Part shown: piece by piece, positions 275 to 64,000 of the stretch
How the letters are laid out: each line of letters opens with the position of its first letter
How positions within the stretch are numbered: position 1 is the stretch's first letter
Source of the DNA: an uncultured Actinomycetota bacterium
GTDB taxonomy: Bacteria; Actinomycetota; Actinomycetes; Actinomycetales; Dermatophilaceae
Length of the DNA stretch: 64,000 nt
Direction: 5' to 3'
Assembly (NCBI GenBank): GCA_963795915.1
Contig: CAWCJA010000010.1
Span: 255,049-319,048 of the forward strand
Notes under the pieces: generated by a model
Seen by the model: only the letters and a program-made list of their open reading frames with translations
Told to the model about the DNA's origin: nothing
Database searches by the model: none
Translations under genes and position numbers: made by a program

Positions 275-318
275 GTATGCGGAAGGCCGCCTCCGTGGGG
301 GAGGCGGCCTTCGCATAC
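275..318. terminator. GC-rich hairpin downstream of clpC1, probable intrinsic terminator
   Basis: GTATGCGGAAGGCCGCCTCC / GGAGGCGGCCTTCGCATAC inverted repeat starting 23 bp past the clpC1 stop. Confidence 0.7.
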
Positions 319-340
319 GGCTCAGCGGGTGGAACGGGCG

Positions 341-2929: not shown

Positions 2930-3033
2930 CGCCAAAGCTCCCTACCTGTGTCGAGACAACCCGATGGTATGCGAGGTGTCTGTGCGAGCCCCACGGCTTC
3001 GTGTTCGGAGAAGCCACGGGTCTGCGATGGGTC

Positions 3034-3060: not shown

Positions 3061-3087
3061 TGCGTTGAGTCGGGTGGGCGCAAGTTT

Positions 3088-3271: not shown

Positions 3272-3273
3272 GC

Positions 3274-3543
3274 TCACGTCCGGTCCTGGGGGGTCCACGC
3301 CTCGCGACGCCGGAAGAGCGGGAAAGCGTTGAACGTGCCGCCGGGGTCGGCGGTCGTCGTCCAGCGGTCCAGGACCCACCCGGCCTGCTCCACGGCGTCC
3401 ACGCTGTCCATCCACGCGGTCAGCTGCCCGACCCCGGTGCCCCAGGCCCCGAGCTTGAACCGTGCGACGAACGTGGGCCGGCCTTGCTGGTATGCCGCCT
3501 GAGCCTGCGCATACAGCGCCTTGAGGTCGGACTCCGTGCTCAT
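3274..3543 (-). CDS. Small hypothetical protein (89 aa)
   Basis: ATG with GAGGT upstream, balanced non-shadow composition, stop abuts the repeat array. Confidence 0.6.
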   Translation of the reverse strand: MSTESDLKALYAQAQAAYQQGRPTFVARFKLGAWGTGVGQLTAWMDSVDAVEQAGWVLDRWTTTADPGGTFNAFPLFRRREAWTPQDRT

Positions 3544-3634: not shown

Positions 3635-4564
3635 TCAACCGACGCGGCGGATGGTGAGCGCAGAGTAGGCCCGGCAGACCTGCGCCATGAACGCGTCCGG
3701 CTGGAGCCGCAGCCCGACGAGGTCGATCCGGAGCACCGTTCCCCCGTCGAGGACGACGGCGTTCTGCCGCAGGTTGTCGTCCATCACGGCCAGCCCGGAG
3801 CGGTGGCCAGACCCGTCGATCTCGACGACCAGGCCGACGTCGGACCAGCAGACGTCGAGATAGATGCGACCGGTGGGGGTCGTGCGCACGAGCTGGCGGT
3901 CCGGGACGGGCAACCCGTGGCGCCGGCACAGCGAGGCGAAGTCCAGCTCACCGAGCGACTGCGCACCCGCCGCGACGTCGGCGGCCAGGAGCAGGATCAG
4001 GGCGCGCCGACTCCGCACGGGCACCGCCGAGGCCGCGACGAGCAGCTGACCCGCCGTGACGACACGTTGCTGGACGACGAGGGCGAGGACCAGCGCGGCC
4101 TGCCGGTCGGAGACGGCCCAGGACGCGGCGCGGATGGCGGCGGTGGCCGGCCGGACGCGAGGTATGCCGGCTACGGCCAGCTCCCCGGGACCTCGCTCGA
4201 TCCGGTGGATCCGCACGCCGGACACGCGGCGGGGGTGGACGGCGCGCGGCACCGAGACGTGCTCGACCGCCTCACCGAACCCCGTGACGCCGGCCGCCTG
4301 CAGCGCGCTGACGCCGTCGAGGACGGCGGCGCCGGCCCCCACCTCCCAGATCGACCGCCACCGCCGGGCGACGTCACCCAGGGCCACGGTGTGCACGGCC
4401 ACCGTCTCGTGACCGTGACGCCGCCACCGGCCGGCCGCGACCTCACGGGCCAGCGCGTTGCGGTCCACGCCCAGCTCGCGGAGCAGACGCCGGGAGAGGA
4501 CGCCGCCATAGTCGTCCGCGGCGAGGGCGGCCCGCTCGCGTCGCGCCCGGGCCACAGCGGTCAT
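3635..4564 (-). CDS. AbiEi-like N-terminal / DUF559 (Vsr-like endonuclease fold) protein
   Basis: N-terminal GGVLSRRLLRELG...GRWRR; C-terminal YLDVCW...LVVEIDGSGH...RQN...VLRI, typical of this actinobacterial family. Confidence 0.75.
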   Translation of the reverse strand: MTAVARARRERAALAADDYGGVLSRRLLRELGVDRNALAREVAAGRWRRHGHETVAVHTVALGDVARRWRSIWEVGAGAAVLDGVSALQAAGVTGFGEAVEHVSVPRAVHPRRVSGVRIHRIERGPGELAVAGIPRVRPATAAIRAASWAVSDRQAALVLALVVQQRVVTAGQLLVAASAVPVRSRRALILLLAADVAAGAQSLGELDFASLCRRHGLPVPDRQLVRTTPTGRIYLDVCWSDVGLVVEIDGSGHRSGLAVMDDNLRQNAVVLDGGTVLRIDLVGLRLQPDAFMAQVCRAYSALTIRRVG

Positions 4565-4762: not shown

Positions 4763-5800
4763 TCAGCGGCGGCGCTGGCAGCGGCCGCACCAGAAGAGGT
4801 TGCGGCCGGCCACGACCGTGGTGCGCACGCGCGACCCGCACACCCGGCAGGGCTCGCCCTGGCGCCGGTAGACGTAGTAGCGACGCCGCATCCCGGCGTA
4901 CCGCTGCCCCACGACTGCGGTCTCGTCCTCCGGACCGTCCGTGTCCTCGCCCGCCTCGTCGGCGTCGCCCAGCGCCTCGGCCTCCAGGGCCGCCTCCACC
5001 TCGGCGAGCGCCTCGAGGTCGGCCACCGCGACGACACCTGCGGGTCCGGGCGCCGAGCGGCGGGCGGAGTCGGTCCACGTGGACGTCAGGGCCGGTACGC
5101 GCCCCGCCGCCTTCAGCGCCTCGGCCCGCTCGACCTGGTCGGGCATGGTGATGATCTGGTTGAACGCCACCCCGAGCGGCAGCAGCCGGCTGAGGTCGGC
5201 CCAGATCGCGTCCCACGTGGCGCGGCGGATCTCCTTGCCGGGCCGGAACGGGTCGACCCGGTGCCGGTAGAGGACCTCGCAGCGGTAGACGTTGCCGACG
5301 CCGGCGAGGATCGACTGGTCCATGAGCAGCTCGGCGATGCTCCGCCCGGACTTCGCGATCCGGGCCCACGCGCGCGACGGGTCCTGATCGGGGCGCAGCG
5401 GGTCGGGACCGAGCCGGGCCACGATGGCGTCGACCTCAGGAGGGGTGACCACCTGGCAGACCACGGCGCCGCGCAGGTCGGCGACGTAGCGGTCGTTGAG
5501 CAGACGCAGGCGCACAGCGCCCCAGGGAGCCGGCACCGCGGCATACCCGTCGGCATCGACGGCGAGCTGGTCCACCGAGAACTTGCCGATGAGGCCGAGG
5601 TGCACGTTGAGCCAGGTGTCGCCCGCGAACTCCATGAACAGGTGCTTGCCCCAGGCCGACGCCTCGAGCACCTCACGGCCGTCGAGAAGTGCGGCACCGT
5701 CCTCGAACCGCCCCTGAGGCGAGGAGGCGGCGGGGGCCGTGCCGCGGAAGGCGGCGTCGAGCGCCTGCGCCAAACGGTGCAGCGTGTGGCCTTCGGGCAC
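4763..5800 (-). CDS. nei: Fpg/Nei family DNA glycosylase/AP lyase
   Basis: N-terminal MPEGH, WGKHLF, H2TH LMDQSILAGVGNVYRCE, C-terminal zinc finger CRVC...CGRCQ. Confidence 0.92.
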   Translation of the reverse strand: MPEGHTLHRLAQALDAAFRGTAPAASSPQGRFEDGAALLDGREVLEASAWGKHLFMEFAGDTWLNVHLGLIGKFSVDQLAVDADGYAAVPAPWGAVRLRLLNDRYVADLRGAVVCQVVTPPEVDAIVARLGPDPLRPDQDPSRAWARIAKSGRSIAELLMDQSILAGVGNVYRCEVLYRHRVDPFRPGKEIRRATWDAIWADLSRLLPLGVAFNQIITMPDQVERAEALKAAGRVPALTSTWTDSARRSAPGPAGVVAVADLEALAEVEAALEAEALGDADEAGEDTDGPEDETAVVGQRYAGMRRRYYVYRRQGEPCRVCGSRVRTTVVAGRNLFWCGRCQRRR

Positions 5801-6721: not shown

Positions 6722-8047
6722 CTAACTCTCGCAGACGGCACCGACAGATGCCGGGTTGTCGGTCCCGGAGACCTCCGCCAGCCGGCCGGTGAGGTATGCG
6801 CGCTCCCCCCCGTTCGCGGTGAGCTCCAGCGCCCGCCGGTACGCCTGCGCCGCCTCCTCGTCACGGCCCAGCCGGCGCAGCAGGTCGGCTCGCACGGCGT
6901 GGAACGGGTGGTACGCCTCCAGCCCAGCGATCGCGTCGACGGCCTCCAGACCCGCGTCCGGCCCGTGCACCTCGGCCACCGCCACCGCCCGGTTCAGGGC
7001 CACGACGGGCGTGGGTGTGACGGTGTGGAGCTGGTCGTAGAGGGCGAGGACCTGGCTCCAGTCGGTGTCGGCCGCCCGCGCGGCGTCGGTGTGCACGGCG
7101 CCGACCGCCGCCTGCAGCTGGTAGGGCCCCGGTCGGCCCCGGCGCAGACAGGCGCGCACCAGTGCGTGGCCCTCGGCCACCAGCCCGCGGTCCCACAGCG
7201 ACCGGTCCTGCTCCGGGAGCGTGACGAGCACCCCACCCTCGAACCGCGCGGGCCGGCGCGCCTCCGAGAGCAGCATCAGCGCGAGCAGGCCGAGCGCCTC
7301 GGGCTCGTCGGGCATCAGCGCCGCCAGCATCCGGGCCAGCCGCACCGCCTCGGCGCCGAGGTCCTGACGGGCGCCGGCGGTGGCGCCCGCCGACAGGTAG
7401 CCCTCGTTGTAGATCAGGTAGAGGGTCGCAAGGACCGCGGCCAGCCGACCCGGCAGCTCGTGGTCCGCGGGAACGCGGTAGGGGATGCGGGCGGCCTTGA
7501 TCTTGGCCTTGGACCGGGTGAGCCGCTTGGCCATCGCGGCCTCCTCGACGAGGAAGGCGCGGGCGATCTCCTCGGTGGTGAGCCCGCCGAGCAGCCGCAG
7601 GGTGAGCGCCACCTGGGCGTCCGGGGCCAGGGCGGGGTGGCAGCAGGTGAAGATCAGCCGCAGCCGCTCGTCCGCCACGCCGCTGACGCCCTCCTCCCCA
7701 CTCACCCCGCCCGTCCCGCCTGTCGCTGTCGGGTCGTCGGCCGCTGGGTCGAGCCGGGCCGCCTGGGCGTGCCGCGCGTCGCGGGTCGACTCGCGTCGTA
7801 GCCGGTCGATGGCCCGGTTGCGGGCGGTCGTGGCCAGCCAGGCCCCCGGGTTCGGGGGCAGCCCGGCGGTGGGCCACCGCCGGGCGGCCTCGACGTACGC
7901 CTCCTGGGCGGCGTCCTCGGCGAGGTCGATGTCGCCGAACCGGCGGACGAGACCGGCGACGACGCGCCCGTGCTCCTCACGGAAGACCTGCTCGAAGGAC
8001 GCGTCGAAGGACGGGCCGGGCGGCGGTGGTCGGGAGGCCTCAGACAT
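6722..8047 (-). CDS. ECF sigma factor with C-terminal TPR-like extension (ECF42-type)
   Basis: DLAEDAAQEA, LRLIFTCCHPAL, YLIYNEGY, GPYQLQAA motifs; directly downstream of a DGPF/YciI gene. Confidence 0.88.
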   Translation of the reverse strand: MSEASRPPPPGPSFDASFEQVFREEHGRVVAGLVRRFGDIDLAEDAAQEAYVEAARRWPTAGLPPNPGAWLATTARNRAIDRLRRESTRDARHAQAARLDPAADDPTATGGTGGVSGEEGVSGVADERLRLIFTCCHPALAPDAQVALTLRLLGGLTTEEIARAFLVEEAAMAKRLTRSKAKIKAARIPYRVPADHELPGRLAAVLATLYLIYNEGYLSAGATAGARQDLGAEAVRLARMLAALMPDEPEALGLLALMLLSEARRPARFEGGVLVTLPEQDRSLWDRGLVAEGHALVRACLRRGRPGPYQLQAAVGAVHTDAARAADTDWSQVLALYDQLHTVTPTPVVALNRAVAVAEVHGPDAGLEAVDAIAGLEAYHPFHAVRADLLRRLGRDEEAAQAYRRALELTANGGERAYLTGRLAEVSGTDNPASVGAVCES

Positions 8048-9191: not shown

Positions 9192-9227
9192 GGGGTATGC
9201 GAGGAGTTTCGGCGAACGTCGTCGACC

Positions 9228-10067
9228 TCACCGGAACCGGGCGGCGAACTCACCGGGCGTCAAGCCCGTGGCCGCCCGGAAGTCGCGGGTGAAGTGGGGC
9301 TGGTCGGCGTAGCCGAGGTCGGCGGCGATCCCGGCCAGCGACGGTCCCTCGTCCCGGAGCCGGTCGGCCGCCTCCTGCAGCCGGCGGCGGCGGATGAGCC
9401 ACGTGGGGCTGAGCCCGATCCGCCGCGACAGCAGCCGCTGGAGGGATCGCTCCGCGATGTCGAAGCGGGCGCACAGGTCCTCGACGCGCAGCAGCTCGGG
9501 GGTCTGCTCCACGTGGCCGACCACCGCGTTGACGAGCAGTCCCTCGTCGTCGACCGGGAGCAGCGACCGCAGGGCACCCTCGACCGCTCCTCGGGCGGTG
9601 GCCTGGGCCGGGGCCGCCTCCGGGGCGTCTCCCATCGCGGCACGCACCTGGTCGGTGAGCTCTGCCCCCGGGAGACCGGGGACCTCGGCGAGCTCCACCC
9701 ACCGGTCGGTGAGGCGACGCACCGGAGCCTGCGTCACGGCATACCCGGCGGCGGGCTGCAGCATGAGGCCGACCGCCCAGCCGCGTCCCTCGAGCACCGT
9801 CTCGGAGATCCCCGACATGACCCCGTAGAACCGGGCGTACGTGTCCGAGATGACGACGAGACAGACGGGGTACTGCAGCACGCGTTGTGGCGCCTGGTGG
9901 CCGGACGGCACGTCCCACACGGGGATCCAGAACCGGCGGGCCACGTCGGCGAGGTCCGGCGAGACGGGGTGGCGCGCGATCGTGAAGGAGCGGTCGGCCG
10001 GGTCCACGAGGTGCGCCCGCTCGACGTCGTCGCGGCCCCGCGCCAGGCGGGACGCGTCGACGGGCAT
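9228..10067 (-). CDS. AraC-family transcriptional regulator (DUF6597-type N-terminus)
   Basis: C-terminal RSLQRL...RRRLQEAA...LGYADQPHFTRDFR HTH; divergent from TIGR03086 gene. Confidence 0.88.
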   Translation of the reverse strand: MPVDASRLARGRDDVERAHLVDPADRSFTIARHPVSPDLADVARRFWIPVWDVPSGHQAPQRVLQYPVCLVVISDTYARFYGVMSGISETVLEGRGWAVGLMLQPAAGYAVTQAPVRRLTDRWVELAEVPGLPGAELTDQVRAAMGDAPEAAPAQATARGAVEGALRSLLPVDDEGLLVNAVVGHVEQTPELLRVEDLCARFDIAERSLQRLLSRRIGLSPTWLIRRRRLQEAADRLRDEGPSLAGIAADLGYADQPHFTRDFRAATGLTPGEFAARFR

Positions 10068-10716: not shown

Positions 10717-10768
10717 GGCCGACGGGATCGACCTCCCTGCACCCGGGCGGGTGCGCCAGGATGGCCGT

Positions 10769-11713
10769 ATGCGTCCGATGCTCGCGACCCCAGGTCGGGC
10801 CATCCCACCGGGCGAGCAGTGGGTGCACGAGGTCAAGTGGGACGGGATGCGGGTGCTCGCCGACGTCGTCGACGGCCGGCTCACCCTGACCAGCCGCACC
10901 GAGCGCGACGTCACCGTGGCCTTCCCCGAGCTGGCCGGCCTCGCCGACGAGTACGAGGACATGCTGCTCGACGGCGAGGTGGTGGCGCTGCACGACGGGG
11001 TGCCGTCGTTCGCGGCGCTCGCCGAGCGGTTCCACGTGACGAGCGCGCGGCGGGCCGCGGCCCAGGCGACCCACAACCCCGCCACGCTGATGGCGTTCGA
11101 CCTGCTGCGTCTCTACGGCGTCGACCTGACCGCCCGGTCCTTCGCCGACCGGCGCGCCACGCTGGAGCGCCTGGAGCTGGCCGGCCGGCACTGGCAGGTG
11201 CCGCCGACCTTCGCCGACGGACGGTCCCTCCACGACGCGACGCGCGACCAGGGCCTGGAGGGGATCGTCAGCAAGCGGGTCTCCTCGCGGTACCACCCCG
11301 GGGTGCGCAGCGAGGAGTGGCTGAAGTTCCCCCACCGCACGTCGATCTCGCTGGTCATCGGCGGCTGGCGCCCCGAGACCGACACGACCGACCGGATGGG
11401 CGCCGTGCTGGTCGGCGCGCCGGAGCCGGGCGGGCTGCGCTACCTCGGCCGCGTGGGCAGCGGCATCGCCGGGAAGGCCGGCGCCGCCCTGCGCACCGAC
11501 CTGGAGCCGCTGGCCGTCGCGACCTCCCCCTTCGTCGACGAGGTGCCCCGCGTCGACGCCGTCGGGGCCACCTGGGTGCACCCCCTCCTCGTCTGCGAGG
11601 TGCAGGCGCTGGGGCTGACCCGCCAGGGGCGGCTGCGGCAACCGGCCTACCGGGGCCTGCGGCCCGACCTGACGCCCGCGGACGTCGACGTCACGGACGT
11701 GCCCCGTGCCTGA
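10769..11713 (+). CDS. ligD: ATP-dependent DNA ligase (LigD ligase domain only)
   Basis: MRPMLA, motif I EVKWDG, LDGEVVA, FDLL, EGIVSKR, WLKF, OB domain RQPAYRGLRPD. Confidence 0.9.
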   Translation: MRPMLATPGRAIPPGEQWVHEVKWDGMRVLADVVDGRLTLTSRTERDVTVAFPELAGLADEYEDMLLDGEVVALHDGVPSFAALAERFHVTSARRAAAQATHNPATLMAFDLLRLYGVDLTARSFADRRATLERLELAGRHWQVPPTFADGRSLHDATRDQGLEGIVSKRVSSRYHPGVRSEEWLKFPHRTSISLVIGGWRPETDTTDRMGAVLVGAPEPGGLRYLGRVGSGIAGKAGAALRTDLEPLAVATSPFVDEVPRVDAVGATWVHPLLVCEVQALGLTRQGRLRQPAYRGLRPDLTPADVDVTDVPRA

Positions 11714-21825: not shown

Positions 21826-21870
21826 GGCGAGAGGGTAGGCGCCCGCACGGCATACGGCAGACTGGCGCGC

Positions 21871-33622: not shown

Positions 33623-33680
33623 CCCGCCGCGGGGGTCGGTATGGCGTCGGGGTCGGTATGCCGGCTGGGACGGCTGCCGG

Positions 33681-35747: not shown

Positions 35748-35919
35748 AATGTCCAGTTCGTGACAGCCGGACGACGGTGGACGGCCGCTCGGCCCGCCCC
35801 ACCGACCTCATCAGCCCCAGGGGTATGCCGCATCCCTCCTGACGACCGGATGGCCACGCCCGCATGCACCGGCTCCGGGCACGACGGGACGCCCCCCGGG
35901 TGGTGCCGCCGGGGGAGGG

Positions 35920-41020: not shown

Positions 41021-41159
41021 GTGGAACCTCTCGGTACAGGAACGAGCGAGCGATGGACGCGCATACCGAGTCGAGGGGTCGACGCTCCCCGGTGAGCGAC
41101 TGCGGTGGGGGACGGTGACCGGTCAGCGCAGGAGGGTCACCACCTGGGTGATGACCCGG

Positions 41160-53792: not shown

Positions 53793-53912
53793 GGCATACC
53801 TGCGCTTTCGTTCACTCGCGGTCACGTGCAGCGGATTCGTCGCTGCTCCGACGTGGGTCGCGGAAGCACACGGTAGCCCAGCCGTCGGCGTCGACCGCTC
53901 AGGTCAGAGGTT

Positions 53913-53943
53913 GTTGAATTTTCAACTTTATGGGCGGTATGCT
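53913..53943 (+). promoter_or_regulatory. Sigma70-type promoter with overlapping palindromic operator
   Basis: TTGAAT-N18-TATGCT, 6 nt before GTG 53950; GTTGAA-TT-TTCAAC palindrome covers the -35. Confidence 0.7.
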
Positions 53944-53949: not shown

Positions 53950-54753
53950 GTGACCTCCCAGCCCGTCCTCTACCTCTCCCACGGCGCCCCTCCGCTCGCC
54001 GACGACGCCACGTGGACCCGTGAGCTCGCGGACTGGAGCAGCGACCTCGGGGACGGGTACGAGAAGCCGGCCAACATCCTCGTCGTGTCCGCCCACTGGG
54101 AGGAGGCGCCGCTCGCGCTCTCGTCGACGACCGGGGCGCCGCTCACCTACGACTTCTGGGGCTTCCCCCAGCGCTACTACGACGTGACGTATGCCGCCCC
54201 GGCCGCGCCGGCGCTCGCCGACGAGGTGGCCCGCATCGTGGCCGCTCCCGGGACGCCGGTGCACCGGGACGAGGCGCGGGGCCTCGACCACGGCGCCTAC
54301 GTGCCGCTCGTCGAGATGTTCCCGGACGCCGACGTGCCGGTGCTGCAGATGTCGATGCCGACGCTCGACCCCCAGGCCCTCTTCCGGCTCGGCCAGAAGC
54401 TCGCGCCGCTGCGGGAGGCGGGCACGCTCATCATCGGCTCGGGGTTCACGACCCACAACCTGCGCGCCTTCAACCCCTCGCTGCCCCCGGACGCCCCGGC
54501 GCCGGGCTGGTCCACCGAGTTCGACGCCTGGGCCAAGGAGGCGATGGCGCACGACGACGTCGACGCCCTGCTCGACTTCCTCGACAAGGCGCCGGCGGCG
54601 CACACGGCCCACCCGCGCACCGAGCACTTCGCCCCGCTCTTCGTCTCCCTCGGCGCTGCGCACGGCACCGACGGGTCGGGGCGACTGGACGCCAGGAGCG
54701 TCATCGACGGCTTCTGGTTCGGTCTGAGCAAGCGCAGCTGGCAGCTCGGCTGA
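53950..54753 (+). CDS. Class III extradiol dioxygenase (LigB/DODA-like)
   Basis: YLSHGAP, VSAHW, YDFWGFP, GLDHGAYVP, GSGFTTHNL, AHPRTEHFAPL. Confidence 0.92.
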   Translation: MTSQPVLYLSHGAPPLADDATWTRELADWSSDLGDGYEKPANILVVSAHWEEAPLALSSTTGAPLTYDFWGFPQRYYDVTYAAPAAPALADEVARIVAAPGTPVHRDEARGLDHGAYVPLVEMFPDADVPVLQMSMPTLDPQALFRLGQKLAPLREAGTLIIGSGFTTHNLRAFNPSLPPDAPAPGWSTEFDAWAKEAMAHDDVDALLDFLDKAPAAHTAHPRTEHFAPLFVSLGAAHGTDGSGRLDARSVIDGFWFGLSKRSWQLG

Positions 54754-56290: not shown

Positions 56291-57385
56291 TCATGGCGCG
56301 GGGGCGGGTCCTCGCGGGCCGGCCGCGCCGGCGGCGAGCCGGTTGGCGGAGCGCGTCCACAGCGCGAGCGCCACGACGCCCGCGACGATCTGCGGCACGA
56401 ACGAGGCCGCGCGCCAGACCAGGGCCGACGCGGTGGCCACCCCCGGCGCCACCCCCAGCCCGACGAGCAGGGCGACCATGGCGGCGTCGACGGTGCCGAG
56501 GCCCCCGGGCGTGACGGGCAGCAGCAGGCCGAGCTGGCTCACGGCGAACGCCCCGAACACGACGAGCACCGGCGTGCCCGCGGCGTTCCAGCCCTCGAGG
56601 CCGCGCAGCGCGAGGTGGAGGATGACGAACTGCGCCACCGAGACGCCCACCTGGGCCATCGTGACGGCCGCCCACCGGCGCCGGACGAGCTCGATGATGC
56701 CGGCCCGGAAGCTCACCACCGCGCTCGAGACGGGCGGCCCCTTGCGGCGCAGTCGAACCGGGAGGCGGGCCGCCGCGGCGTCACCCCAGGCGCCCAGCCG
56801 CACGGCGGCCCCCTCGCTGCGCATGACGACCGCGAACCCGCCCACGAGTACCAGCAGCACGACGAGCCCGACCACGGCGCCGAGCACGGAGGAGCCCGCG
56901 GCGTGGCCGGAGAGCACGAGGGCGAGCACCCCGAGCACCGGGAGGCCGAGCGTCACGAAGAGGCTCCAGACCCCGATGGCCGCGATGGCCGAGGCCGCCG
57001 CCACCGAGGGGTACCCCCAGGAGGCGAACATCGCATACTGCACGCCGAGGCCGAAGGCGCCGCCGCCGGGCACGCCGTTGCTGATGGCGAAGGCCGCCTG
57101 GTTGAGCTGCTGCGCGTGCCGGAAGCCCAGTCCCGGGGCAGCGGCGACGAAGGGTAGGCCGTACCAGACGAGATAGACGACGACGGCCGCCGCGACGAGC
57201 AGCAGCGCCGGCACCGACATACTGCGCAGGGCGTCCGCCGCCTGCGCGTAGGAGCCGACCTGAGGCATGACCCGGAACACGATGAGGGCCAGCACCGCGA
57301 CCTCGACGACCGCGAGGATGACGACCCGCCGCTTGCTCAGGCCGGTGCGGGTGGGAGCCGGGGTCGCGGGCTCCGCCTCCGTCAT
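56291..57385 (-). CDS. Lysylphosphatidylglycerol synthase TM / flippase-like membrane protein
   Basis: Multiple TM helices, NGVPGGGAFG, PVTPGGLGTVDA, LVWR. Confidence 0.82.
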   Translation of the reverse strand: MTEAEPATPAPTRTGLSKRRVVILAVVEVAVLALIVFRVMPQVGSYAQAADALRSMSVPALLLVAAAVVVYLVWYGLPFVAAAPGLGFRHAQQLNQAAFAISNGVPGGGAFGLGVQYAMFASWGYPSVAAASAIAAIGVWSLFVTLGLPVLGVLALVLSGHAAGSSVLGAVVGLVVLLVLVGGFAVVMRSEGAAVRLGAWGDAAAARLPVRLRRKGPPVSSAVVSFRAGIIELVRRRWAAVTMAQVGVSVAQFVILHLALRGLEGWNAAGTPVLVVFGAFAVSQLGLLLPVTPGGLGTVDAAMVALLVGLGVAPGVATASALVWRAASFVPQIVAGVVALALWTRSANRLAAGAAGPRGPAPAP

Positions 57386-59457
57386 GCCACGGAGTCCAGG
57401 GGCTCGGAGCCCGGGCTGCTCAGGTCGGCCAGCGACCTCACCTGGCTCTTGACCGCCGCACCCGCCCGGGCCATCTGCTCGGCGACCATGCGCCGTTCGG
57501 CCCACCGCCGCTCGCGGTCGCGCAGGGCGTGCTCGATCCGCAGCATCACCTCGTCGCTCACCGGCAGCCGGTACGCCTCGGACACCATGCGCGGGATGGT
57601 CGCCCGGTAGTCGTGGCCGCGGGCGACGAAGACACCGGGCACGAAGTCGATGGCGTTGATGACATCGACCAGGAGCACGAGGAAGGTCGTGTAGGGCATC
57701 CACAGCGCCGACTCGGGCACTCCGGGCGGGCGCGGTCCCTTCGCGGGGAGCCACGTGGGACGCATGAAGGCCATGCGTGGCGCGAACTTGGTGATGGGGT
57801 CCTCGGGGTTGTTGAGCAGGACGAAGCGGGGCCGGGTGGGCCGTTCGGCGACCGCGGCGTCCCACTCGGCGGCGTTGGCGACCTCGACGACGAAGCCCTG
57901 GGGGTCGTGGCTGCGCGGGTCACGGCGCCACTCCGTCGCCCACGCGCTGCCGGCCGGGGTACCGAGGAACAGGGCCGAGTCCATGCCGACCCGGTCGAAA
58001 CCGGTGGACCCCTCGTGCAGGAAGCAGCTCTGCAGGGTCTGCGCACCGAGGGACTCACCGAACCCGACCAGCCGCGGCCGCTGGTCGACGGGCAGCCCTC
58101 GGATGCGCCAGGCGATCGCGTTGAGCAGGGCGAGGTTCTGCTCCCGCGCCGTCCGCACCCGGTCGAGGGAGAGGTAGGAGGGTCGCAGCGAGTACTGCAG
58201 GGCGACGGTGGCGCAGTCGCCCCGGGTGAGGTACTCGAGGGTCTCGATCGCGACGTAGTTGAGGTAGCCCGTGCCCGTCGGCGAGGCCACGCAGATGACC
58301 GCGCGGTCGAACGCACGGAGCCGCTCCATGTCCTCCATGACCATCGAGACCCGGGCCCCGACGCTCACCGCCGTCTCGAGTCCGGCGAAGCACCGGATGG
58401 GGTCCTTGACGTCCTCGATCGGGGTGCCGGTGGTGTCGGCGATCTGGTTCCGGGGGAGGGACATCGCGACGAACCGCACCCCCTCACGGCTGAGGGTCGT
58501 CCAGTCGATGCCCGAGCTCGACCCCCCGCTGACGAACGCGGACTCGGGCGCCGTCGTGTAGGCCGCGTCGATGGCCGAGCCGCCCGCCTCGGCCCAGCGG
58601 TAGAGCAGCTCGCCCCCCACGCCGAGGGCGGCCACGAAGACGCCGAGGACGACGCTGCGTCCGGCCAGGACCGCATACGGCTCGGTGCCCGGCAGCACGC
58701 GGCTGACGCCGCGCGCCACCTGACGGGCCGCCGCCGCCTCGGTGTCCCCCACGACGTTGAGGACCACCGCGACCCCGAGACCGAGGCCGGCGGAGACGGG
58801 GAACGAGGTCACCCAGCGTTCCGTCCGGCGGTCGGGACGCAGCTCCTCGCCCGTCAGCGGGTCGACCGTGGCCTGCCGCCGGGCGGCGATGACGGGGTCG
58901 TAGCGGCGGAAGCGGCGGATCAGGCCCGTGGCCACCGCGGCCCCGACGAGGAAGCCCGCGGACGGGGCCAGCACGCGGATGACGGGATGCCGTTCCCCGT
59001 AGCGTTGGTCGACCCCCTCCGTCGCGGCGATCGCGAGGGTGGCCACCCCGACCCGGAGCATCCGGACGCCCATCGTGCGCGCCACCCGACGGGAGTACCG
59101 CTGACCCGGATGGTTCGGGATCCCCACGACCACCGCGGCGCCCACCACCGCCGTGCCCGCCGCGACCCCGGCCTCGACCACACGGATGAAGTCGGGGTTG
59201 TCCGAGCGACCGGTCCAGCCGGCGATCAACCGCGCCGTGACGTGATGACGCGCCTGCGCGTTCATCACCAGGCCGTGCTGAAGGGCGGCGGCGACACCGG
59301 TCACGAGCACCTGCTCGCGCCGGCCTCGCGGCATCAGGCCCGGCATGAACGACGCGCCCGCGGTGACGGTGGACAGCAAGGAGGCGGCCCGGGTCGCGGC
59401 GCTGTCGCCCATGAGGACGGTGCCCAGGGTGGCGATCACGGAGCGCACGGGTCTCAT
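57382..59457 (-). CDS. Membrane-anchored alpha/beta hydrolase (COG4425-like)
   Basis: N-terminal TMs, LSREG..FV, PTGTGY, QYSLRPS, FGESLG nucleophile elbow, DPIT, GHDY. Confidence 0.82.
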   Translation of the reverse strand: MRPVRSVIATLGTVLMGDSAATRAASLLSTVTAGASFMPGLMPRGRREQVLVTGVAAALQHGLVMNAQARHHVTARLIAGWTGRSDNPDFIRVVEAGVAAGTAVVGAAVVVGIPNHPGQRYSRRVARTMGVRMLRVGVATLAIAATEGVDQRYGERHPVIRVLAPSAGFLVGAAVATGLIRRFRRYDPVIAARRQATVDPLTGEELRPDRRTERWVTSFPVSAGLGLGVAVVLNVVGDTEAAAARQVARGVSRVLPGTEPYAVLAGRSVVLGVFVAALGVGGELLYRWAEAGGSAIDAAYTTAPESAFVSGGSSSGIDWTTLSREGVRFVAMSLPRNQIADTTGTPIEDVKDPIRCFAGLETAVSVGARVSMVMEDMERLRAFDRAVICVASPTGTGYLNYVAIETLEYLTRGDCATVALQYSLRPSYLSLDRVRTAREQNLALLNAIAWRIRGLPVDQRPRLVGFGESLGAQTLQSCFLHEGSTGFDRVGMDSALFLGTPAGSAWATEWRRDPRSHDPQGFVVEVANAAEWDAAVAERPTRPRFVLLNNPEDPITKFAPRMAFMRPTWLPAKGPRPPGVPESALWMPYTTFLVLLVDVINAIDFVPGVFVARGHDYRATIPRMVSEAYRLPVSDEVMLRIEHALRDRERRWAERRMVAEQMARAGAAVKSQVRSLADLSSPGSEPLDSVA

Positions 59458-59504: not shown

Positions 59505-61562
59505 CTACTCCGATGCCCGAGGGGCCATCCGGGCCCCGGCGAGCACCGGGCCGGACGAGAGCGGCATCTCCTCGTCGAGGCCGTCCGCCGCGCCGCTGAA
59601 CTGCGCGGCATACAGGCGGGCGTATGCGCCGGAGCGGGCGAGCAGCTCGTCGTGCGTCCCCTGCTCGACGATGTGGCCCTCCTCCATGACGAGGATGACG
59701 TCGGCGTCGCGGATCGTCGACAGGCGGTGGGCGATGACGAAGCTCGTGCGGTCGCTGCGGAGCGCGGCCATGGCGTGCTGCACGAGCTGCTCGGTGCGGG
59801 TGTCGACCGAGCTCGTGGCCTCGTCGAGGATGAGCAGCTCGGGTGCCGCGAGGAAGGCCCGGGCGATGGTCAGCAGCTGCTTCTCCCCCGCCGAGATGTT
59901 GCCCGCCTCGGAGTCGAGCAGCGTGTCGTAGCCGTCGGGCAGCGAGTGGACGAACCGGTCGACGTAGGTCGCCCGGGCGGCGGCGACGATCTCCTCCTCC
60001 GTGGCGTCCGGGCGGGCGTAGGCGATGTTGTCGCGGATGGTGCCCTGGAACAGCCAGGTGTCCTGCAGCACCATGCCGATCCGGGCCCGCAGGTCGTGGC
60101 GCGACATCGCGGTGATGTCGACGCCGTCGATGGTGATGCGGCCGGCGTCGAGCTCGTAGAAGCGCATGACGAGGTTGACGAGGGTCGTCTTCCCGGCGCC
60201 GGTGGGACCGACGATGGCCACGGTCTGGCCCGGCTCGACGCAGAGGTCGAGGTGCTCGATGAGCGGCGTGTCGGGCGTGTAGGAGAAGCTGACGTCCTCG
60301 AAGGCGACCCGCCCTCCGGACGGGACCGGCGAGCCCTTCGCCACCACGGGGTCGGGCCGCTGCTCCGGCGCGTCGAGCACCTCGAACACCCGCTCGGCCG
60401 AGGCCACTCCGGACTGCAGGAGGTTGGCCATCGAGGCCACCTGGGTCAGGGGCTGCGTGAACTGGCGCGAGTACTGGATGAACGCCTGCACGTCGCCGAG
60501 GGACATCGTGCCGCTGGCGACGCGCAGCCCGCCGATGACGGCGATGACGACGTAGTTGAGGTTCCCGATGAACATCATCGCCGGCATGATGATGCCGCTG
60601 ATGAACTGCGCCCCGAAGGACGCGGAGAACAGCTCGTCGTTCTTCACCTCGAAGTCGCGCTGCGACTCCTTCTGGCGACCGAAGACCTTGACCAGGCCGT
60701 GGCCGGTGAACGTCTCCTCGATGATGCCGTTGAGCTGCCCGGTGTTCTTCCACTGCTGCACGAACAGCTTCTGCGAGCGCTTGGCGATCATCGTCGTCAG
60801 CAGCAGGGAGATGGGGATCGTCACCAGGGCGATGAGGGCCAGGACCCAGGAGATGCTGAACATGAGGCCGACGACGGCCACCACCGTGAGCAGCGAGGTG
60901 AGCAGCTGGCTGAGGGTCTGCTGGAGGCTCTGCTGCACGTTGTCGACGTCGTTGGTGACACGGCTCAGCAGCTCGCCGCGCGGCTGACCGTCGAAGTAGG
61001 GCAACGGGAGTGCGTTGAGCTTGTCCTCCACGTCGGAGCGGAGCGTGTTGGTCGTGCGGGTGACGACGCCGGCGAGGATCCAGCCCGACAGCCACTGCAG
61101 CAGGGCACCGAGGGCGTACAGGCTGAGGACGAGGACGAGGATCTGGCCGAGGTGGGTGACATCGATGCCCTGGCCGGGCACGAGGTTCATCCCCGAGATG
61201 AGGTCGGCCTGCTGCGCGTCGCCCTGGGCCCGCAGACCGGCGACGACCTGCTCCTTGGTGACGCCCGCGGGCAGCCGCTTGCCGATGAACCCCTCGAAGA
61301 TGAGGTTGGTCGCGGTGCCGAGGATCTTGGGTCCGATCGCCGTGAGGGCGACGCCGACCACCGCGAGGACGACGACCACACCGACGTGGGCCCGTTCCGG
61401 ACGGAGCCGCCGCATCAGCCGCTTCGCCGAGGGCAGGAACGTCTGCGACTTCTCACCCGGCATCGCCATGCCCATCGGGCCGCGCTGGCGCTGGGCTCCC
61501 GCGGCGGGGCCGCGGCGTTGCTCGGCCGCCCGCTCCTCCTCGGACTTCACTCCCTCGCTCAT
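59505..61562 (-). CDS. ABC exporter, fused permease/ATPase subunit
   Basis: GPTGAGKTT, ISAGEKQ, LILDEAT, IAHRLSTI. Confidence 0.95.
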   Translation of the reverse strand: MSEGVKSEEERAAEQRRGPAAGAQRQRGPMGMAMPGEKSQTFLPSAKRLMRRLRPERAHVGVVVVLAVVGVALTAIGPKILGTATNLIFEGFIGKRLPAGVTKEQVVAGLRAQGDAQQADLISGMNLVPGQGIDVTHLGQILVLVLSLYALGALLQWLSGWILAGVVTRTTNTLRSDVEDKLNALPLPYFDGQPRGELLSRVTNDVDNVQQSLQQTLSQLLTSLLTVVAVVGLMFSISWVLALIALVTIPISLLLTTMIAKRSQKLFVQQWKNTGQLNGIIEETFTGHGLVKVFGRQKESQRDFEVKNDELFSASFGAQFISGIIMPAMMFIGNLNYVVIAVIGGLRVASGTMSLGDVQAFIQYSRQFTQPLTQVASMANLLQSGVASAERVFEVLDAPEQRPDPVVAKGSPVPSGGRVAFEDVSFSYTPDTPLIEHLDLCVEPGQTVAIVGPTGAGKTTLVNLVMRFYELDAGRITIDGVDITAMSRHDLRARIGMVLQDTWLFQGTIRDNIAYARPDATEEEIVAAARATYVDRFVHSLPDGYDTLLDSEAGNISAGEKQLLTIARAFLAAPELLILDEATSSVDTRTEQLVQHAMAALRSDRTSFVIAHRLSTIRDADVILVMEEGHIVEQGTHDELLARSGAYARLYAAQFSGAADGLDEEMPLSSGPVLAGARMAPRASE

Positions 61563-63292
61563 GCCGCCACCTCCGCGCTGCGCTGGGACTCCACGATCTG
61601 CTGGTAGGTCTCGCACGTCTGCAGCAGCTCGGTATGCGTGCCCTGGCCGACCACCACCCCGTCGTCGAGGACGACGATCCGGTCGGCGTCGATGATCGTC
61701 GACACGCGCTGGGCGACGACGATCACCGTCGCCTCGCGGGTGACCGGACGCAGGGCCTGCCGCAGGCGGGCGTCGGTCGCGAGGTCGAGCGCCGAGAAGG
61801 CGTCGTCGAAGAGGTAGACCTCGGGTCGGCGGACCAGGGCCCGGGCGATGGCCAGCCGCTGACGCTGACCGCCCGACACGTTGGTGCCGCCCTGCGTGAT
61901 CGGGGACTCGAGCCGGTCCGGCATCCGCTCCACGAAGTCCTGCGCCTGGGCGATGCGCAGCGCCTCCCAGAGCTCCTCGTCGGTGGCCTCGGGGTTGCCG
62001 TAGCGCAGGTTGGTGGCCACCGTGCCGGTGAACAGGTAGGGGCGCTGGGGGATGAGCCCGATCCTCGACCAGAGCGTGTCGAGGTCGGCCTCCCGGACCT
62101 GCACCCCGCCCACCGTGAGCGAGCCCCCCGTGATGTCGAACAGCCGCGGGACGAGGTTGACAAGGGTCGTCTTCCCGGCCCCCGTGCTGCCGATGACCGC
62201 GGTCGTCTCACCGGGCTCGGCCCGGAAGCTGACGTCGCACAGCACGGGCGACTCCGCGCCCGGATAGTGGAAGTCGACGTGGTCGAAGACGACGGCTGAC
62301 CCCCGGGCGATCGACCGGACGGGGTGGGTGGGCTCGGCCACCGACGACACCGTGTCGAGCACCTCGGCGATCCGCTCGGACGACACCGACGCCCGCGGGA
62401 TCATCATCGACATGAAGGTCGCCATCATCACGGCGAACAGGATCTGGATGAGGTACGCCATGAATGCGGTGAGCGCACCGACCTGGAGGTCGCCGCTGTC
62501 GACGCGTCCGGCCCCGAACCACAGCACGCCCACGGTCGAGGCGTTGAGGATGATCATGACGATCGGGAAGATGAGCGCCTGGAGCCGCCCGACGCGCAGC
62601 GCCGTCCCGGTGAGGGTGGCGTTGGCCCCCGCGAACCGGTCGGTCTCGTAGTCCTCGCGCACGAAGGCCCGCACGACGCGGATGCCGGTGATCTGCTCCC
62701 GCATGATCCGGTTCACGCTGTCGATCGAGGTCTGCATCAGCCGGAACTGGGGCAGCATCTGCCGGATGACCAGCCCGACCGCGATGGCCAGGACCGGCAC
62801 CGCGACGGCCACGAGCCAGGAGAGGCCGACGTCCTGGCGCAGGGCCATGATGATGCCGCCGATCATGTTGATCGGGGCGGACACCATGATGGCCAGCCCC
62901 ATGAACACGACCATCTGCACCTGGGTCACGTCGTTGGTGTTGCGCGAGATCAGGGTCGGGGCACCGAACCGGGACACCTCCTGCGCCGAGAAGTCACCGA
63001 CCCGGTGGAAGATCGCGGCGCGCAGGTCACGGCCGAGCCCCATCGACGAGCGCGAGGCGAGGTAGACGGCCGCGATCGTCGCGACGATCTGGACGACGCT
63101 GACCGCGAGCATCCAGCCACCGGTGCGGATGATGTAGCCGGTGTCGCCCTTGGCCACGCCCTCGTCGATGATGTCGGCGTTGAGGGTGGGCAGGTAGAGG
63201 GCGCTGAGCGCCCCGATGAGCTGCAGGACGAGGATCACCGTGATCGGGCCCTTGTAGGGCGCGAGGTAGGTGCGGACGAGGCGGACGAGCAT
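61559..63292 (-). CDS. ABC exporter, fused permease/ATPase subunit (heterodimer partner)
   Basis: GSTGAGKTT, VSGGQRQR, degenerate Walker B YLFDD and switch VAQR. Confidence 0.95.
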   Translation of the reverse strand: MLVRLVRTYLAPYKGPITVILVLQLIGALSALYLPTLNADIIDEGVAKGDTGYIIRTGGWMLAVSVVQIVATIAAVYLASRSSMGLGRDLRAAIFHRVGDFSAQEVSRFGAPTLISRNTNDVTQVQMVVFMGLAIMVSAPINMIGGIIMALRQDVGLSWLVAVAVPVLAIAVGLVIRQMLPQFRLMQTSIDSVNRIMREQITGIRVVRAFVREDYETDRFAGANATLTGTALRVGRLQALIFPIVMIILNASTVGVLWFGAGRVDSGDLQVGALTAFMAYLIQILFAVMMATFMSMMIPRASVSSERIAEVLDTVSSVAEPTHPVRSIARGSAVVFDHVDFHYPGAESPVLCDVSFRAEPGETTAVIGSTGAGKTTLVNLVPRLFDITGGSLTVGGVQVREADLDTLWSRIGLIPQRPYLFTGTVATNLRYGNPEATDEELWEALRIAQAQDFVERMPDRLESPITQGGTNVSGGQRQRLAIARALVRRPEVYLFDDAFSALDLATDARLRQALRPVTREATVIVVAQRVSTIIDADRIVVLDDGVVVGQGTHTELLQTCETYQQIVESQRSAEVAA

Positions 63293-64000
63293 CAGCGGTC
63301 CTCAGGGGTTCTCGGGGTGAGTGGAGTGGCGTCGGAGGTCCCGGTCGGGTCGGGTATGCGGACGGTCGGGGCGCCACATCGGCCCTCGCCGCGGGCGGCG
63401 GGGGTGAGGGTGCCGTCGAGGAGGAGGTCGACGATCTCCTGCGGGCGCAGGATCGGGCCGGCCGAGATCTCCGGGTGGCTCGCCGAGAAGGTCAGCAGCC
63501 GCACGTAGCGCACCAGGTCGGCCGGGCTGCAGGTCAGCTGGTCGGCGAACGGCTCGACGAAGGCCTGCATCCGGGTGCCGGGCGGCCCCCAGTCGTTGTC
63601 GCGGCTGAGGTCCTGCTCGTCGAGCGGGACGTGGCCGGTGTCGGGACGGCACCCTCGGTGTTCCTCGACGTGGGCCGGCGGGGCGGTCAGCCCGAGCGCG
63701 CCCATGACCCCGAAGATCTCGCTGAACCGGTTCTGGAGCACGGTCACCACCGCGACCAGACGCCCGCGCAGCGGCAGGTCGGGGTCGATGGCGGCGAACT
63801 GCTCCGCGACGGGAGCGGGGCAGAACGCCTCCTCCACGACCGCGTCGACGAGCCGCTCCTTGGTGTCGAAGGCCCGGAAGACGGTGCCCTCGGCGATGCC
63901 GGCCGCCTCGGCGATCTCCCGCGTGGTCGGCATCGTGCCCCGCTCCCGGATGAGGGCGAGGGCCGAGCGCACGATCGACACCCGGCGCTCGGTCGGGGGC
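63292..64000 (-). CDS. TetR-family regulator (5-prime end probably outside the window)
   Basis: TTREIAEAAGIAEGTVFRAFDTKERL HTH; frame is open to the window edge; TGATG coupling to the ABC gene. Confidence 0.88.
   Translation of the reverse strand, partial: PPTERRVSIVRSALALIRERGTMPTTREIAEAAGIAEGTVFRAFDTKERLVDAVVEEAFCPAPVAEQFAAIDPDLPLRGRLVAVVTVLQNRFSEIFGVMGALGLTAPPAHVEEHRGCRPDTGHVPLDEQDLSRDNDWGPPGTRMQAFVEPFADQLTCSPADLVRYVRLLTFSASHPEISAGPILRPQEIVDLLLDGTLTPAARGEGRCGAPTVRIPDPTGTSDATPLTPRTPEDR

Follow-up and report, generated by a model that had tools for sequence, protein, structure and literature searches.

The window, a stretch of 64,000 nucleotides with a GC content of 72.8%, comes from the genome (G000; 72% GC, assembled in 10 contigs) of a soil actinobacterium, a Lapillicoccus of the family Dermatophilaceae. 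Scattered over it, within genes and between them, are 58 copies of one hexamer, 30 read as GTATGC and 28 as the reverse complement GCATAC (Table 1), exactly as counted in the preliminary description, and the base composition at 72.8% GC indeed predicts about 15. A preceding G was said to extend about 60% of the copies, and the recount gave 21 GGTATGC and 14 GCATACC, or 60%. The one-mismatch neighbours are as scarce as had been reported, with one GTATGG, two GTATCG (and three in reverse complement) and two GCATAG, while GCATGC occurs six times. The proposal that the word forms both arms of a terminator agrees with the hairpin that the first pair of copies flanks, directly 3' of a gene.

Table 1. 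Copies of GTATGC in the window, with the reading in the sense of the gene where the copy is genic. The gene names nadC and topA follow the preliminary description; intergenic status follows the gene calls of the present analysis.
Context	Positions	Strand	Remarks
Intergenic, 5' arm of hairpin 275-318	275..280	+	Fold -51 kcal/mol, just 3' of gene ending at 341
Intergenic, 3' arm of hairpin 275-318	313..318	-	
Intergenic	2967..2972	+	Conserved in G010, G012
Gene 3274-3543(-), GCA-TAC	3490..3495	+	
Gene 3274-3543(-), G-TAT-GC	3509..3514	-	
Gene 3635-4555(-), GC-ATA-C, rare Ile ATA	4162..4167	+	
G-TAT-GC	5541..5546	-	
GCA-TAC	6794..6799	+	GTACGC in G010, G009, G012
Intergenic	9195..9200	+	
G-TAT-GC	9739..9744	-	
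Intergenic; ATG may be putative downstream gene start	10767..10772	+	ATGC conserved in relatives
G-TAT-GC	12299..12304	+	GTACGC in G015
G-TAT-GC	12509..12514	+	
G-TAT-GC	13923..13928	-	
G-CAT-AC	14850..14855	+	
nadC, G-TAT-GC	16188..16193	-	
nadC, G-CAT-AC	16386..16391	+	CAC form in G015
Intergenic	18488..18493	+	
G-TAT-GC	19900..19905	+	
G-CAT-AC	20323..20328	-	
GCA-TAC	20363..20368	-	
GCA-TAC	21223..21228	+	
GCA-TAC	21850..21855	-	
GGT-ATG-C	23296..23301	+	
G-TAT-GC	23856..23861	-	GTACGC in 4/4 aligned relatives
G-TAT-GC	26106..26111	-	
ftsH, G-TAT-GC	26605..26610	-	
ftsH, G-TAT-GC	27202..27207	-	Conserved in G009, G011, G012
tilS, GCA-TAC	29850..29855	+	Position common to several congeners
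tilS, GGT-ATG-C	29927..29932	-	Conserved in G010, G009, G011, G012
GCA-TAC	32003..32008	+	
G-TAT-GC	32331..32336	-	
G-TAT-GC	32928..32933	-	
Intergenic	33656..33661	+	
Intergenic	35823..35828	+	
G-TAT-GC	38351..38356	+	
G-CAT-AC	39284..39289	+	
G-TAT-GC	40296..40301	-	
Intergenic	41061..41066	-	
GCA-TAC	41839..41844	+	
G-TAT-GC	42569..42574	-	
G-TAT-GC	44133..44138	-	
Intergenic	45684..45689	-	
G-CAT-AC	46240..46245	-	
GCA-TAC	48076..48081	+	
Intergenic	49554..49559	+	
G-TAT-GC	50494..50499	-	
G-CAT-AC	50632..50637	+	
topA, G-TAT-GC	52204..52209	-	
Intergenic	53794..53799	-	
Intergenic, putative -10 site	53937..53942	+	8 nt upstream of gene starting at 53950
G-TAT-GC	54189..54194	+	
G-TAT-GC	57033..57038	-	
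G-TAT-GC	58673..58678	-	
G-TAT-GC	59608..59613	-	Inverted pair with 59622
GCA-TAC	59622..59627	+	Inverted pair with 59608
G-CAT-AC	61632..61637	+	
GC-ATA-C, rare Ile ATA	63354..63359	+	

The whole genome contains 3297 copies, about one per 1.35 kb, against expectations of 1141 from composition and of 709 and 812 from second- and third-order Markov models. Other ATA-bearing one-mismatch neighbours of the word number just 63-282 each, of the related palindromes there are few copies (20 of GTATAC, 662 of GCATGC), and 36% of all ATA/TAT trimers of the genome fall inside GTATGC. Within genes 2593 copies were found, compared with 510.6 +/- 20.4 in shuffles preserving protein sequence and codon usage (O/E 5.08, z about 100). 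The over-representation is therefore confirmed as real and far above chance: the ratio is nowhere near 1, and the word stands out among hexamers containing TAT or ATA.

Codon routes to the word

Inside genes the word is reached, as had been proposed, through several rare codons, the synonymous routes running via TAT, CAT, ATA, GCA, GTA and GGT; the codons given earlier for individual sites were all verified (TAT at 27202, 52204 and 16188, GCA-TAC at 29850 and 32003, CAT-ACC at 16386, GGT-ATG at 29927, ATA at 4162). The codon TAT accounts for 62% of Tyr within G-TAY-GC and 3% elsewhere, and the shares in the word context and elsewhere are 43% and 6% for CAT, 10% and 0.3% for ATA, 13% and 2.5% for GCA, 12.5% and 0.8% for GTA, and 27% and 10% for GGT, corresponding to odds ratios of 10-50 for the word-forming codons. 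Protein sequence is scarcely bent (O/E of the YA dipeptide 1.18), and the effect is equally strong between genes. Third-position A/T is conserved in enriched congeners at 0.46-0.68 within the word and 0.23-0.26 outside it. GTATGC is thus actively maintained against the strong G+C and codon preference of the genome.

At orthologous sites the alternative state is mostly GTACGC (12 of 27 differences from the closest relative), with GTGTGC second. The preliminary description had named GCATGC as a possible C-to-T source, and its suggested depletion was indeed found, both GTACGC and GCATGC standing at 0.5-0.64 of the codon-preserving shuffle expectation; GCATGC, however, is not the main partner, and as it never appeared as the orthologous state it was rejected as the precursor. 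The word is created from all of its one-step neighbours, above all by transitions.

It is highly improbable that GTATGC arises by deamination of GTACGC (or GCATGC) marked by a cytosine methylase. The predominance of GTACGC among orthologous alternatives, a word/(word+GTACGC) ratio of 0.42-0.86 whatever the reading frame and also in intergenic DNA, and the depletion of GCATGC would all suit such a hotspot, but the His change CAC to CAT (the GTGTGC route) and transversion routes are likewise enriched at conserved amino acids, as the original argument against a single deamination hotspot had it, and the same-strand exclusion described below would not be expected. The C5 methylase family PF00145 occurs in 2 of the 26 genus genomes, the G000 copy lying on a low-GC island of contig C5, and because most carriers lack the methylase this explanation is largely refuted.

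An artefact, arising when long reads are base-called or assembled at a modified motif, was also considered, since G000 looks like a long-read MAG of 10 contigs and all six classes of codon could be imitated by one frame-blind change of GTACGC to GTATGC. The same word nevertheless occupies the same orthologous positions in many assemblies that are fragmented and whose contig names are of MEGAHIT/SPAdes style, and in isolate genomes, among them a complete Terrabacter chromosome, and amino acids are conserved at word sites. This conservation across assemblies refutes the artefact; a single frame-blind conversion, whether by base-calling or hypermutation, was rejected on the same grounds, the other routes being real. 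As first proposed, GTATGC behaves like HIP1 or uptake sequences: the word is fixed, and selection or drive favours it.

Distribution and dialects in Dermatophilaceae

Among 26 Lapillicoccus species the word is enriched in 25, of which G014, G006 and G017 are weak carriers, and it is also enriched in Terrabacter, Serinicoccus and the other Dermatophilaceae loci and MAGs sampled. In twelve further families of the order it is at control level, and there is no enrichment in Kribbella, Streptomyces or Catenulispora. GTATGC is a signature word of the whole genome in Dermatophilaceae, carried by most of the family; the searchable literature yielded no description of it.

The exception within the genus, G015, has 78 copies, keeps third-position A/T within the word at 0 of 17 sites, and showed no substitute word in 70 kb. 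Where the agent that maintains it has been lost, as in this lineage, the word decays completely. Among carriers the preferred extension differs between lineages, being GTATGCCG, GTATGCGK or GTATGGAG. The first is a strict octamer used by G017 and G006, G014 additionally uses GTATGGAG, and the dialect of G035 is GTATGCGG/GCGT, while G000 has a looser form, best with a preceding G and with CG, GT or GC after the word. The dialects, the family-wide spread with one loss, the same-orientation exclusion and the absence from islands are the most informative features of the word, and were missing from the preliminary description.

Spacing on each strand, islands and candidate genes

Pairs of copies in the same orientation number 108, 141, 148, 193, 261 and 305 per 250 bp with increasing distance before reaching a plateau of about 330, whereas opposite-orientation pairs are flat at about 335 per 250 bp. 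Copies in the same orientation therefore exclude one another out to about 1.25-1.5 kb, opposite ones are independent, and control words show no such exclusion. The T-fraction at GTAYGC climbs from 0.38 to 0.77 as the nearest same-strand copy becomes more distant, with the same course on either side, and the exclusion is repeated in the DNA of relatives, where 71% of gaps of up to 750 bp are between opposite orientations (p = 4e-7). Spacing per strand is regular (CV 0.86-0.93; same-strand gaps below 300 bp 4% vs 11% expected). Two same-strand copies within about 1.3 kb are redundant and opposite-strand copies mutually independent, a strand-restricted redundancy that is new here.

Recently acquired low-GC islands exclude the word, which occurs at most once per 10 kb in islands of 61-69% GC. 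Inverted pairs, 85 in total, make hairpins at gene ends. No orientation skew with the sign of the GC skew was seen in this 10-contig assembly, where GC skew is weak (strand counts 469/533 in G>C bins vs 284/275 in C>G bins).

The main rival of the self-DNA tag proposed below is a Chi-like signal, which we consider unlikely but a serious contender. A translocating end-processing machine, for example the actinobacterial AdnAB helicase-nuclease, would read the word on one strand, switch from degradation to recombination and so mark self. Under selection, any two-ended break would have a copy in the correct orientation no more than about 1-2 kb away, so that a nearby second same-strand copy would add little. 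Orientation-specific reading, the symmetric exclusion (in this model the benefit of a site scales with the same-strand gap on one side multiplied by that on the other), the absence from acquired islands and the length of 6-8 bases agree with this. The known Chi words of RecBCD and AddAB are likewise oriented, of 5-8 bases, recognised on a single strand by an enzyme that translocates, over-represented in the core genome, under-represented in foreign DNA, and functionally redundant when a second same-orientation copy is nearby. GTATGC differs in its lack of a detected replication-linked skew (in 10 contigs of weak GC skew) and in its far stronger enrichment and codon distortion, odds ratios of 10-50 for codon choice being far above those of Chi sites. 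RecC is not co-distributed with it, being present in G015 and G014 and absent from the complete, strongly enriched G005, G012, G016 and G018. AdnAB-type gene pairs (PDDEXK_1 search) occur in all genomes including the word-less G015 and are therefore uninformative on the trait; we know of no Chi for AdnAB.

Regular per-strand spacing and family-wide distribution would also suit a site for a chromosome-organisation or replication protein (nucleoid protein, strong topoisomerase I site or primase site) held at regular density per strand by ordinary selection, and mycobacterial topoisomerase I does prefer a specific hexamer. We regard this as improbable, for replichore skew was not seen in the 10-contig assembly, complete loss in G015 with no replacement word is hard to square with an essential architectural role, and absence from islands suggests slow accumulation rather than requirement.

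The preliminary description had offered an orphan methyltransferase, a Vsr-like enzyme and competence genes as candidates. Searches for C5, N6 and N4 methyltransferases found no co-distribution with the trait: PF01555 has a real match in G015 alone, PF02384 occurs only in G015, G036 and G006, and most strongly enriched genomes lack both as well as PF00145, while the word-less G015 has two such enzymes. A motif-based methylase shortlist in G000 held incidental matches only (nitrate reductase, HrpA and similar). Vsr (PF03852) is present in 2 of 16 good genomes, the G000 copy lying in the low-GC island beside the C5 methylase, and thus does not follow the word either. Of the competence genes, ComEC and Tad/type IV platform genes (T2SSF) are present in carriers as anticipated, but do not discriminate: they are intact in G015, and for this reason nothing links the trait to them. 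Neither RecC, ComEC, the T2SSF platform, PDDEXK_1/AdnAB nor the few DUF559 genes (of Vsr-like fold) separate G015 from carriers.

These searches also bear on word-directed biased repair, in which an enzyme would mend near-matches in heteroduplex or mismatched DNA towards the word with no uptake step, as proposed for HIP1. The draining of all one-step neighbours, transitions most, the depletion of GTACGC and GCATGC and an intergenic effect as strong as the genic one would follow from it. It is nonetheless distinctly unlikely, since Vsr is missing from 14 of the 16 good genomes, DUF559 genes are few and shared with G015, no cognate methylase was found with the three models, and a local bias does not predict suppression by a same-strand copy some 1 kb off but not by an opposite-strand one. 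HIP1 of cyanobacteria (GCGATCGC) is similarly hyper-abundant, reached by many codon routes, lineage-specific and attributed to biased repair or selection. It is, however, palindromic and linked to cognate methyltransferases, whereas GTATGC is asymmetric, strand-read, not its own reverse complement, and present in genomes with no detectable DNA methyltransferases. Dcm/Vsr very-short-patch repair (CCWGG over-, CTWGG under-represented) likewise shifts a word and its one-step transition neighbour in opposite directions, but here the T-bearing form wins, several neighbours feed it, and methylase and Vsr are missing in most carriers. An asymmetric target of restriction-modification or BREX type differs in that N6/N4 methyltransferases (PF01555 and PF02384 models) do not accompany the word in carriers. 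Since none of the known genes for methylation, repair or recombination accounts for it, GTATGC looks like an undescribed self-DNA signal, read strand by strand.

A candidate self-DNA tag

The reading that we tentatively prefer is that GTATGC is a candidate strand-read self-DNA tag, held by a drive linked to uptake or recombination, similar to DUS and USS but orientation-dependent. During DNA uptake or homologous recombination the tag would act on DNA that is linear or single-stranded, and a fragment, or a single strand entering the cell, would be favoured when the word sits on that strand. Through biased transmission, the molecular drive that has been proposed for DUS and USS, word-creating alleles would then spread, and one tag per strand may suffice for every 1-1.5 kb or so of imported or recombined DNA. 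This would explain why the two strands carry equal numbers, why same-strand copies exclude each other and why no replication-related skew was seen. The competence hardware, ComEC and the Tad/type IV platform genes, was counted in favour of a tag. Counted against it were its intact state in G015, a proteome effect slighter than those reported for USS, and the poor discrimination of a 6-8 base word against low-GC foreign DNA, low-GC loci having 5-10 copies per 21 kb by chance.

The DUS of Neisseriaceae, where the Neisseria uptake receptor is the minor pilin ComP, and the USS of Pasteurellaceae are, like GTATGC, short non-palindromic words. Both strands carry them at roughly one copy per kb, genic and intergenic alike; coding sequence is made to accommodate them, they are scarce in acquired DNA, and their inverted pairs form hairpins at gene ends. 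Hyper-abundance of a short specific word on both strands, typical of uptake sequences, is seen here at an O/E of 3-5. Uptake sequences reportedly have lineage-specific dialects, and related lineages differ in the same way here. GTATGC is distinguished by its host phylum, the Gram-positive Actinobacteria, by a core of just 6-8 bases with an A/T-rich TAT step in a 72% GC genome, by its slight effect on protein sequence in G000, and by a strand-specific redundancy for which we know of no documented precedent among uptake sequences. The even spacing and the absence of chromosome-wide orientation bias are shared, uptake sequences being more evenly spaced than random and showing no such bias (PMC1939737), whereas the strand-specific redundancy contrasts with uptake in Haemophilus, which is independent of sequence orientation (PMC1939737). 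Transformation itself is known in Actinobacteria, that of Micrococcus luteus being dependent on Flp pili (PMC4322843).

It is possible, if somewhat doubtful, that Dermatophilaceae hold the first self-DNA recognition word of Gram-positive Actinobacteria, a tag similar to DUS and USS but read on a single strand, required on each strand about every 1-1.5 kb, and with dialects that would correspond to exchange groups within a genus. To our knowledge, very few lineages, the Neisseriaceae, Pasteurellaceae and cyanobacteria, have signature words that run through the whole genome and prevail over codon choice, and each has been informative on DNA uptake, recombination or repair. GTATGC lies in another phylum, and its same-strand-only redundancy, not documented for the known words, points to a reader scanning one strand of linear DNA. 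If it is a self-DNA tag, the weak carriers and the natural loss in G015 would give a comparative handle on a new kind of sequence-specific reader; cultured carriers exist, and that loss along with the dialects within one genus offers a route to the reader gene. Dermatophilaceae include abundant soil bacteria and wastewater phosphorus removers (Tetrasphaera/Phosphoribacter). In their genomes GTATGC serves as a strong marker that tells native from acquired DNA, and it might help to improve the genetic transformation of these hard-to-manipulate bacteria.

Abundance and codon context of the word

Exact counting in the window gave 30 copies of GTATGC and 28 of its reverse complement GCATAC, which agrees with the preliminary description; 35 of these 58 copies carry the GGTATGC extension claimed there, and the one-mismatch neighbours singled out as rare occur 0-3 times each. 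In the source genome (G000, a Lapillicoccus assembly of 10 contigs, 4.45 Mb and 72% GC) the word occurs 3297 times; base composition predicts 1141 copies, and second- and third-order Markov models predict 709 and 812, respectively. A fourth-order model absorbs the signal, because the over-represented 5-mers are already inside the model. Other ATA-bearing neighbours of the word number 63-282 copies each, and 36% of all ATA/TAT trimers fall within GTATGC/GCATAC. The word is sharply delimited. CTAG is extremely depleted in the same genome, with 1160 copies where composition predicts 11328, a ratio lower than that of any other tetranucleotide, and TA is its rarest dinucleotide (0.45).

Genes were predicted with a self-trained, codon-usage-based caller (3769 genes, 83% coding), and genic counts were compared with a null in which synonymous codons were shuffled inside each gene. 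Genes contained 2593 copies versus 510.6±20.4 after shuffling (z≈100), and therefore the proposed over-representation holds under a codon-aware null, with an observed/expected ratio of 5.08 rather than about 1. The same shuffle gave ratios of 0.64 for GTACGC, 0.55 for GCGTAC and 0.50 for GCATGC.

In coding sequences of G000 the word is built in the sense classes xxG-TAT-GCx (1273 copies), GCA-TAC (425), xxG-CAT-ACx (402), xGT-ATG-Cxx (223), xGC-ATA-Cxx (159) and GTA-TGC (110), with a further 705 copies intergenic or at a gene edge; the codon assignments made site by site in the window were each confirmed against the gene calls. Rare-codon use rises exactly where the codon would complete GTATGC: TAT (Tyr) reaches 62% in word context versus 3% elsewhere, CAT (His) 43% versus 6%, ATA (Ile) 10% versus 0.3%, GCA (Ala) 13% versus 2.5%, GTA (Val) 12.5% versus 0.8%, and GGT (Gly) 27% versus 10%. 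The protein sequence is scarcely bent by the word (observed/expected 1.18 for YA).

The ratio of the word to the sum of the word and GTACGC is 0.42-0.86 in every reading frame. Since a single frame-blind change of GTACGC to GTATGC could mimic all six codon classes, and G000 has the look of a long-read MAG, an assembly or base-calling artefact was considered. GTATGC lies at conserved positions across many fragmented Lapillicoccus assemblies, and its carriers include isolate genomes as well as MAGs with MEGAHIT/SPAdes-style contig names. These shared positions, together with whole-genome counts in congeners and the isolates, rule out such an artefact, and the enrichment is therefore real.

Distribution, maintenance and dialects

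The word is carried by 25 of 26 Lapillicoccus species, with whole-genome counts of 1100-4700 copies in 16 of 19 species counted; G014 is a weak carrier, G006 and G017 are intermediate, and G036 and G037 are lowish. The single-contig 4.6-Mb genome of the congener G015 contains 78 copies, equal to its own control level, and no substitute word was seen in 70 kb of it. G015 represents a complete natural loss within a genus showing graded word densities. Enrichment was also found in Terrabacter (16 and 12 copies per 21 kb), Serinicoccus (13 and 12 per 21 kb) and several Dermatophilaceae MAGs (up to 38 copies per 17.5 kb). Twelve other families of the same order were at control level, and loci of Kribbella, Streptomyces and Catenulispora showed no enrichment.

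Comparison of G000 with its closest congener, G010, revealed 25 common word sites among 51 aligned. At differing sites the orthologous state was GTACGC (n=12), GTGTGC (n=3) and then transversion neighbours; GCATGC, previously suggested as a precursor through C-to-T change, was never found there. In carriers, third-position A/T was conserved at 0.46-0.68 inside the word versus 0.23-0.26 at other A/T third positions, while in G015 it was conserved inside the word at 0 of 17 positions. Where the trait is present the word is thus under active maintenance; where it is absent, the word decays quickly.

The longer form GTATGCCG is used by G017 and G006, in the latter at 40 per 200 kb versus 2.8 expected. 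The congener G035 uses GTATGCGG and GTATGCGT, and G014 has the additional form GTATGGAG. In sampled loci of G014 (L125-L134), GTATGGAG/CTCCATAC numbers 12 copies versus 1 expected in 199 kb, alongside GTATGCCG, and this second variant may be a dialect in transition. The Lapillicoccus hexamer dialect is looser than longer forms such as GTATGCCG and CGGCATAC. The bases that follow the word matter in G000: T-fractions are 0.75, 0.74 and 0.72 before CG, GT and GC, the favoured contexts, and 0.18-0.40 before the disfavoured CA, GA, CT and CC; the preferred base at −1 is G.

Strand-specific spacing along the chromosome

No orientation skew of the word relative to the sign of the weak GC skew was seen in G000, and the word is almost missing (≤1 per 10 kb) from the 61-69% GC islands of this genome. 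Adjacent copies tend to switch orientation (2100 alternating versus 1187 same), because same-orientation pairs are depleted at short range (108, 141, 148, 193, 261 and 305 in successive 250-bp bins, followed by a plateau) while opposite-orientation pairs remain flat at about 335 per bin at all distances. For five control words the pair correlation was flat or showed the reverse trend. At GTAYGC sites the T-fraction is 0.38 if another copy on the same strand lies no more than 250 bp away and climbs to 0.77 for a distance of 2-3 kb; the rise is symmetric on the upstream and downstream sides and is not produced by copies on the opposite strand. The interaction reaches about 1.3 kb, and the strands are independent of each other. 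Where copies in the sampled DNA of relatives lie ≤750 bp apart, 71% of the gaps separate opposite orientations (p=4e-7); no such exclusion was seen in G006 and G014, sparse carriers whose gaps exceed its range. Inverted pairs account for about 5% of copies and are mostly intergenic hairpins at gene ends.

Candidate agents and interpretation

Among the Lapillicoccus genomes, the C5 methylase family PF00145 was restricted to G006 and a low-GC island of G000, PF01555 gave a real match in G015 only, and PF02384 was confined to G015, G036 and G006. None of these three families follows the trait, which largely excludes methylation-based explanations, including the co-distributed methyltransferase envisaged in the preliminary description. 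The Vsr-like gene also envisaged there found no support: among 16 good genomes Vsr occurs in G000 (same island) and G006 only, and DUF559 is present in all genomes searched, including G015, with a copy number of 1-5 unrelated to the word. ComEC and pilus platform genes likewise occur in all genomes searched, including G015; they do not track the trait, and their distribution is uninformative. RecC is present in G015 and G014 and absent from the complete carriers G005, G012, G016 and G018, which excludes a Chi signal read by RecBCD.

Several features of these gene families are listed in the table below. Across the 26 genomes, a clear PF01555 methylase occurs in the word-less G015 alone, and a type I-like PF02384 methylase there and in two others. 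In most carriers no DNA methyltransferase at all could be detected, an unusual situation for soil bacteria of 3-5 Mb. RecBCD, judged by RecC, is patchy in the genus (13 of 26 genomes, several near-complete genomes lacking it), and AdnAB-type pairs are universal. The PF00145/PF03852 pair of G000 resembles a mobile Dcm-Vsr module carried by an acquired island. In G000 and G015 the open frame round ComEC spans about 1215-1235 aa, compared with about 820-940 aa in most congeners, and the extra length may reflect an N-terminal extension, a fusion, or merely an open upstream frame.

Coordinates of features associated with the word or with candidate agents
Feature	Sequence	Position	Remarks
Inverted word pair	Window	275/313	Intergenic gene-end hairpin
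Hairpin	Window	255-340	−51 kcal/mol; outer stem is the GTATGC/GCATAC pair; directly 3' of minus-strand gene ending at 341; no obvious U-tract
Gene with weak DUF559 (Vsr-like fold) match	Window	3635-4555 (−)	17.6 bits, below cut-off; holds one of the window's two ATA-Ile word copies
Sole C5 methyltransferase (PF00145)	G000	C5:87771-89260	530-aa frame; adjoins sole Vsr (PF03852); region about 61% GC, almost without the word
Low-GC island holding this pair	G000	C5:0-130 kb	Outside the window
PF01555/PF02384 methylase loci	G015	C1:49674-50744, C1:286110-287087	
ComEC	G000	C2:480236-481033	Locus L113
ComEC	G015	C1:107947-108738	

Three facts need explaining: the convergence from all neighbours, the maintenance against G+C pressure, and the strand-specific interaction over about 1.3 kb. 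Locally acting processes, whether a mutation hotspot or a repair bias, would at best cover the convergence. All three would follow if the word is a signal in linear or single-stranded DNA that is read on one strand. The tentatively favoured reading is a self tag linked to uptake or recombination and spread by biased transmission, because the word resembles the uptake sequences (DUS/USS) of Neisseriaceae and Pasteurellaceae in the size of the distortion, paired hairpins and dialects (PMC3630211), and in even spacing and the apparent lack of chromosome-wide orientation bias (PMC1939737). However, uptake in Haemophilus is independent of orientation, whereas the GTATGC interaction is strand-specific; the word would then have to be recognised either in the single strand that is imported or at a subsequent stage. 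Flp-pilus-dependent transformation is known in Actinobacteria (PMC4322843).

The main rival, a Chi-like signal for AdnAB, appears less probable. AdnAB-type nuclease pairs were found in all genomes searched, including the word-less G015, a distribution that does not track the trait and is uninformative. Word-directed biased repair ranks next and is unlikely, followed by a structural binding site, which is more doubtful still.

Full-text literature searches on the hexamer, on octamer forms of it, and on the family names combined with over-representation terms turned up no description of the word. New in this characterisation of GTATGC are the quantitative exclusion curve with control words, the spectrum of orthologous states, the relaxed hexamer dialect that Lapillicoccus uses, the negative co-distribution tests, and the loss in G015 with the graded series within its genus.
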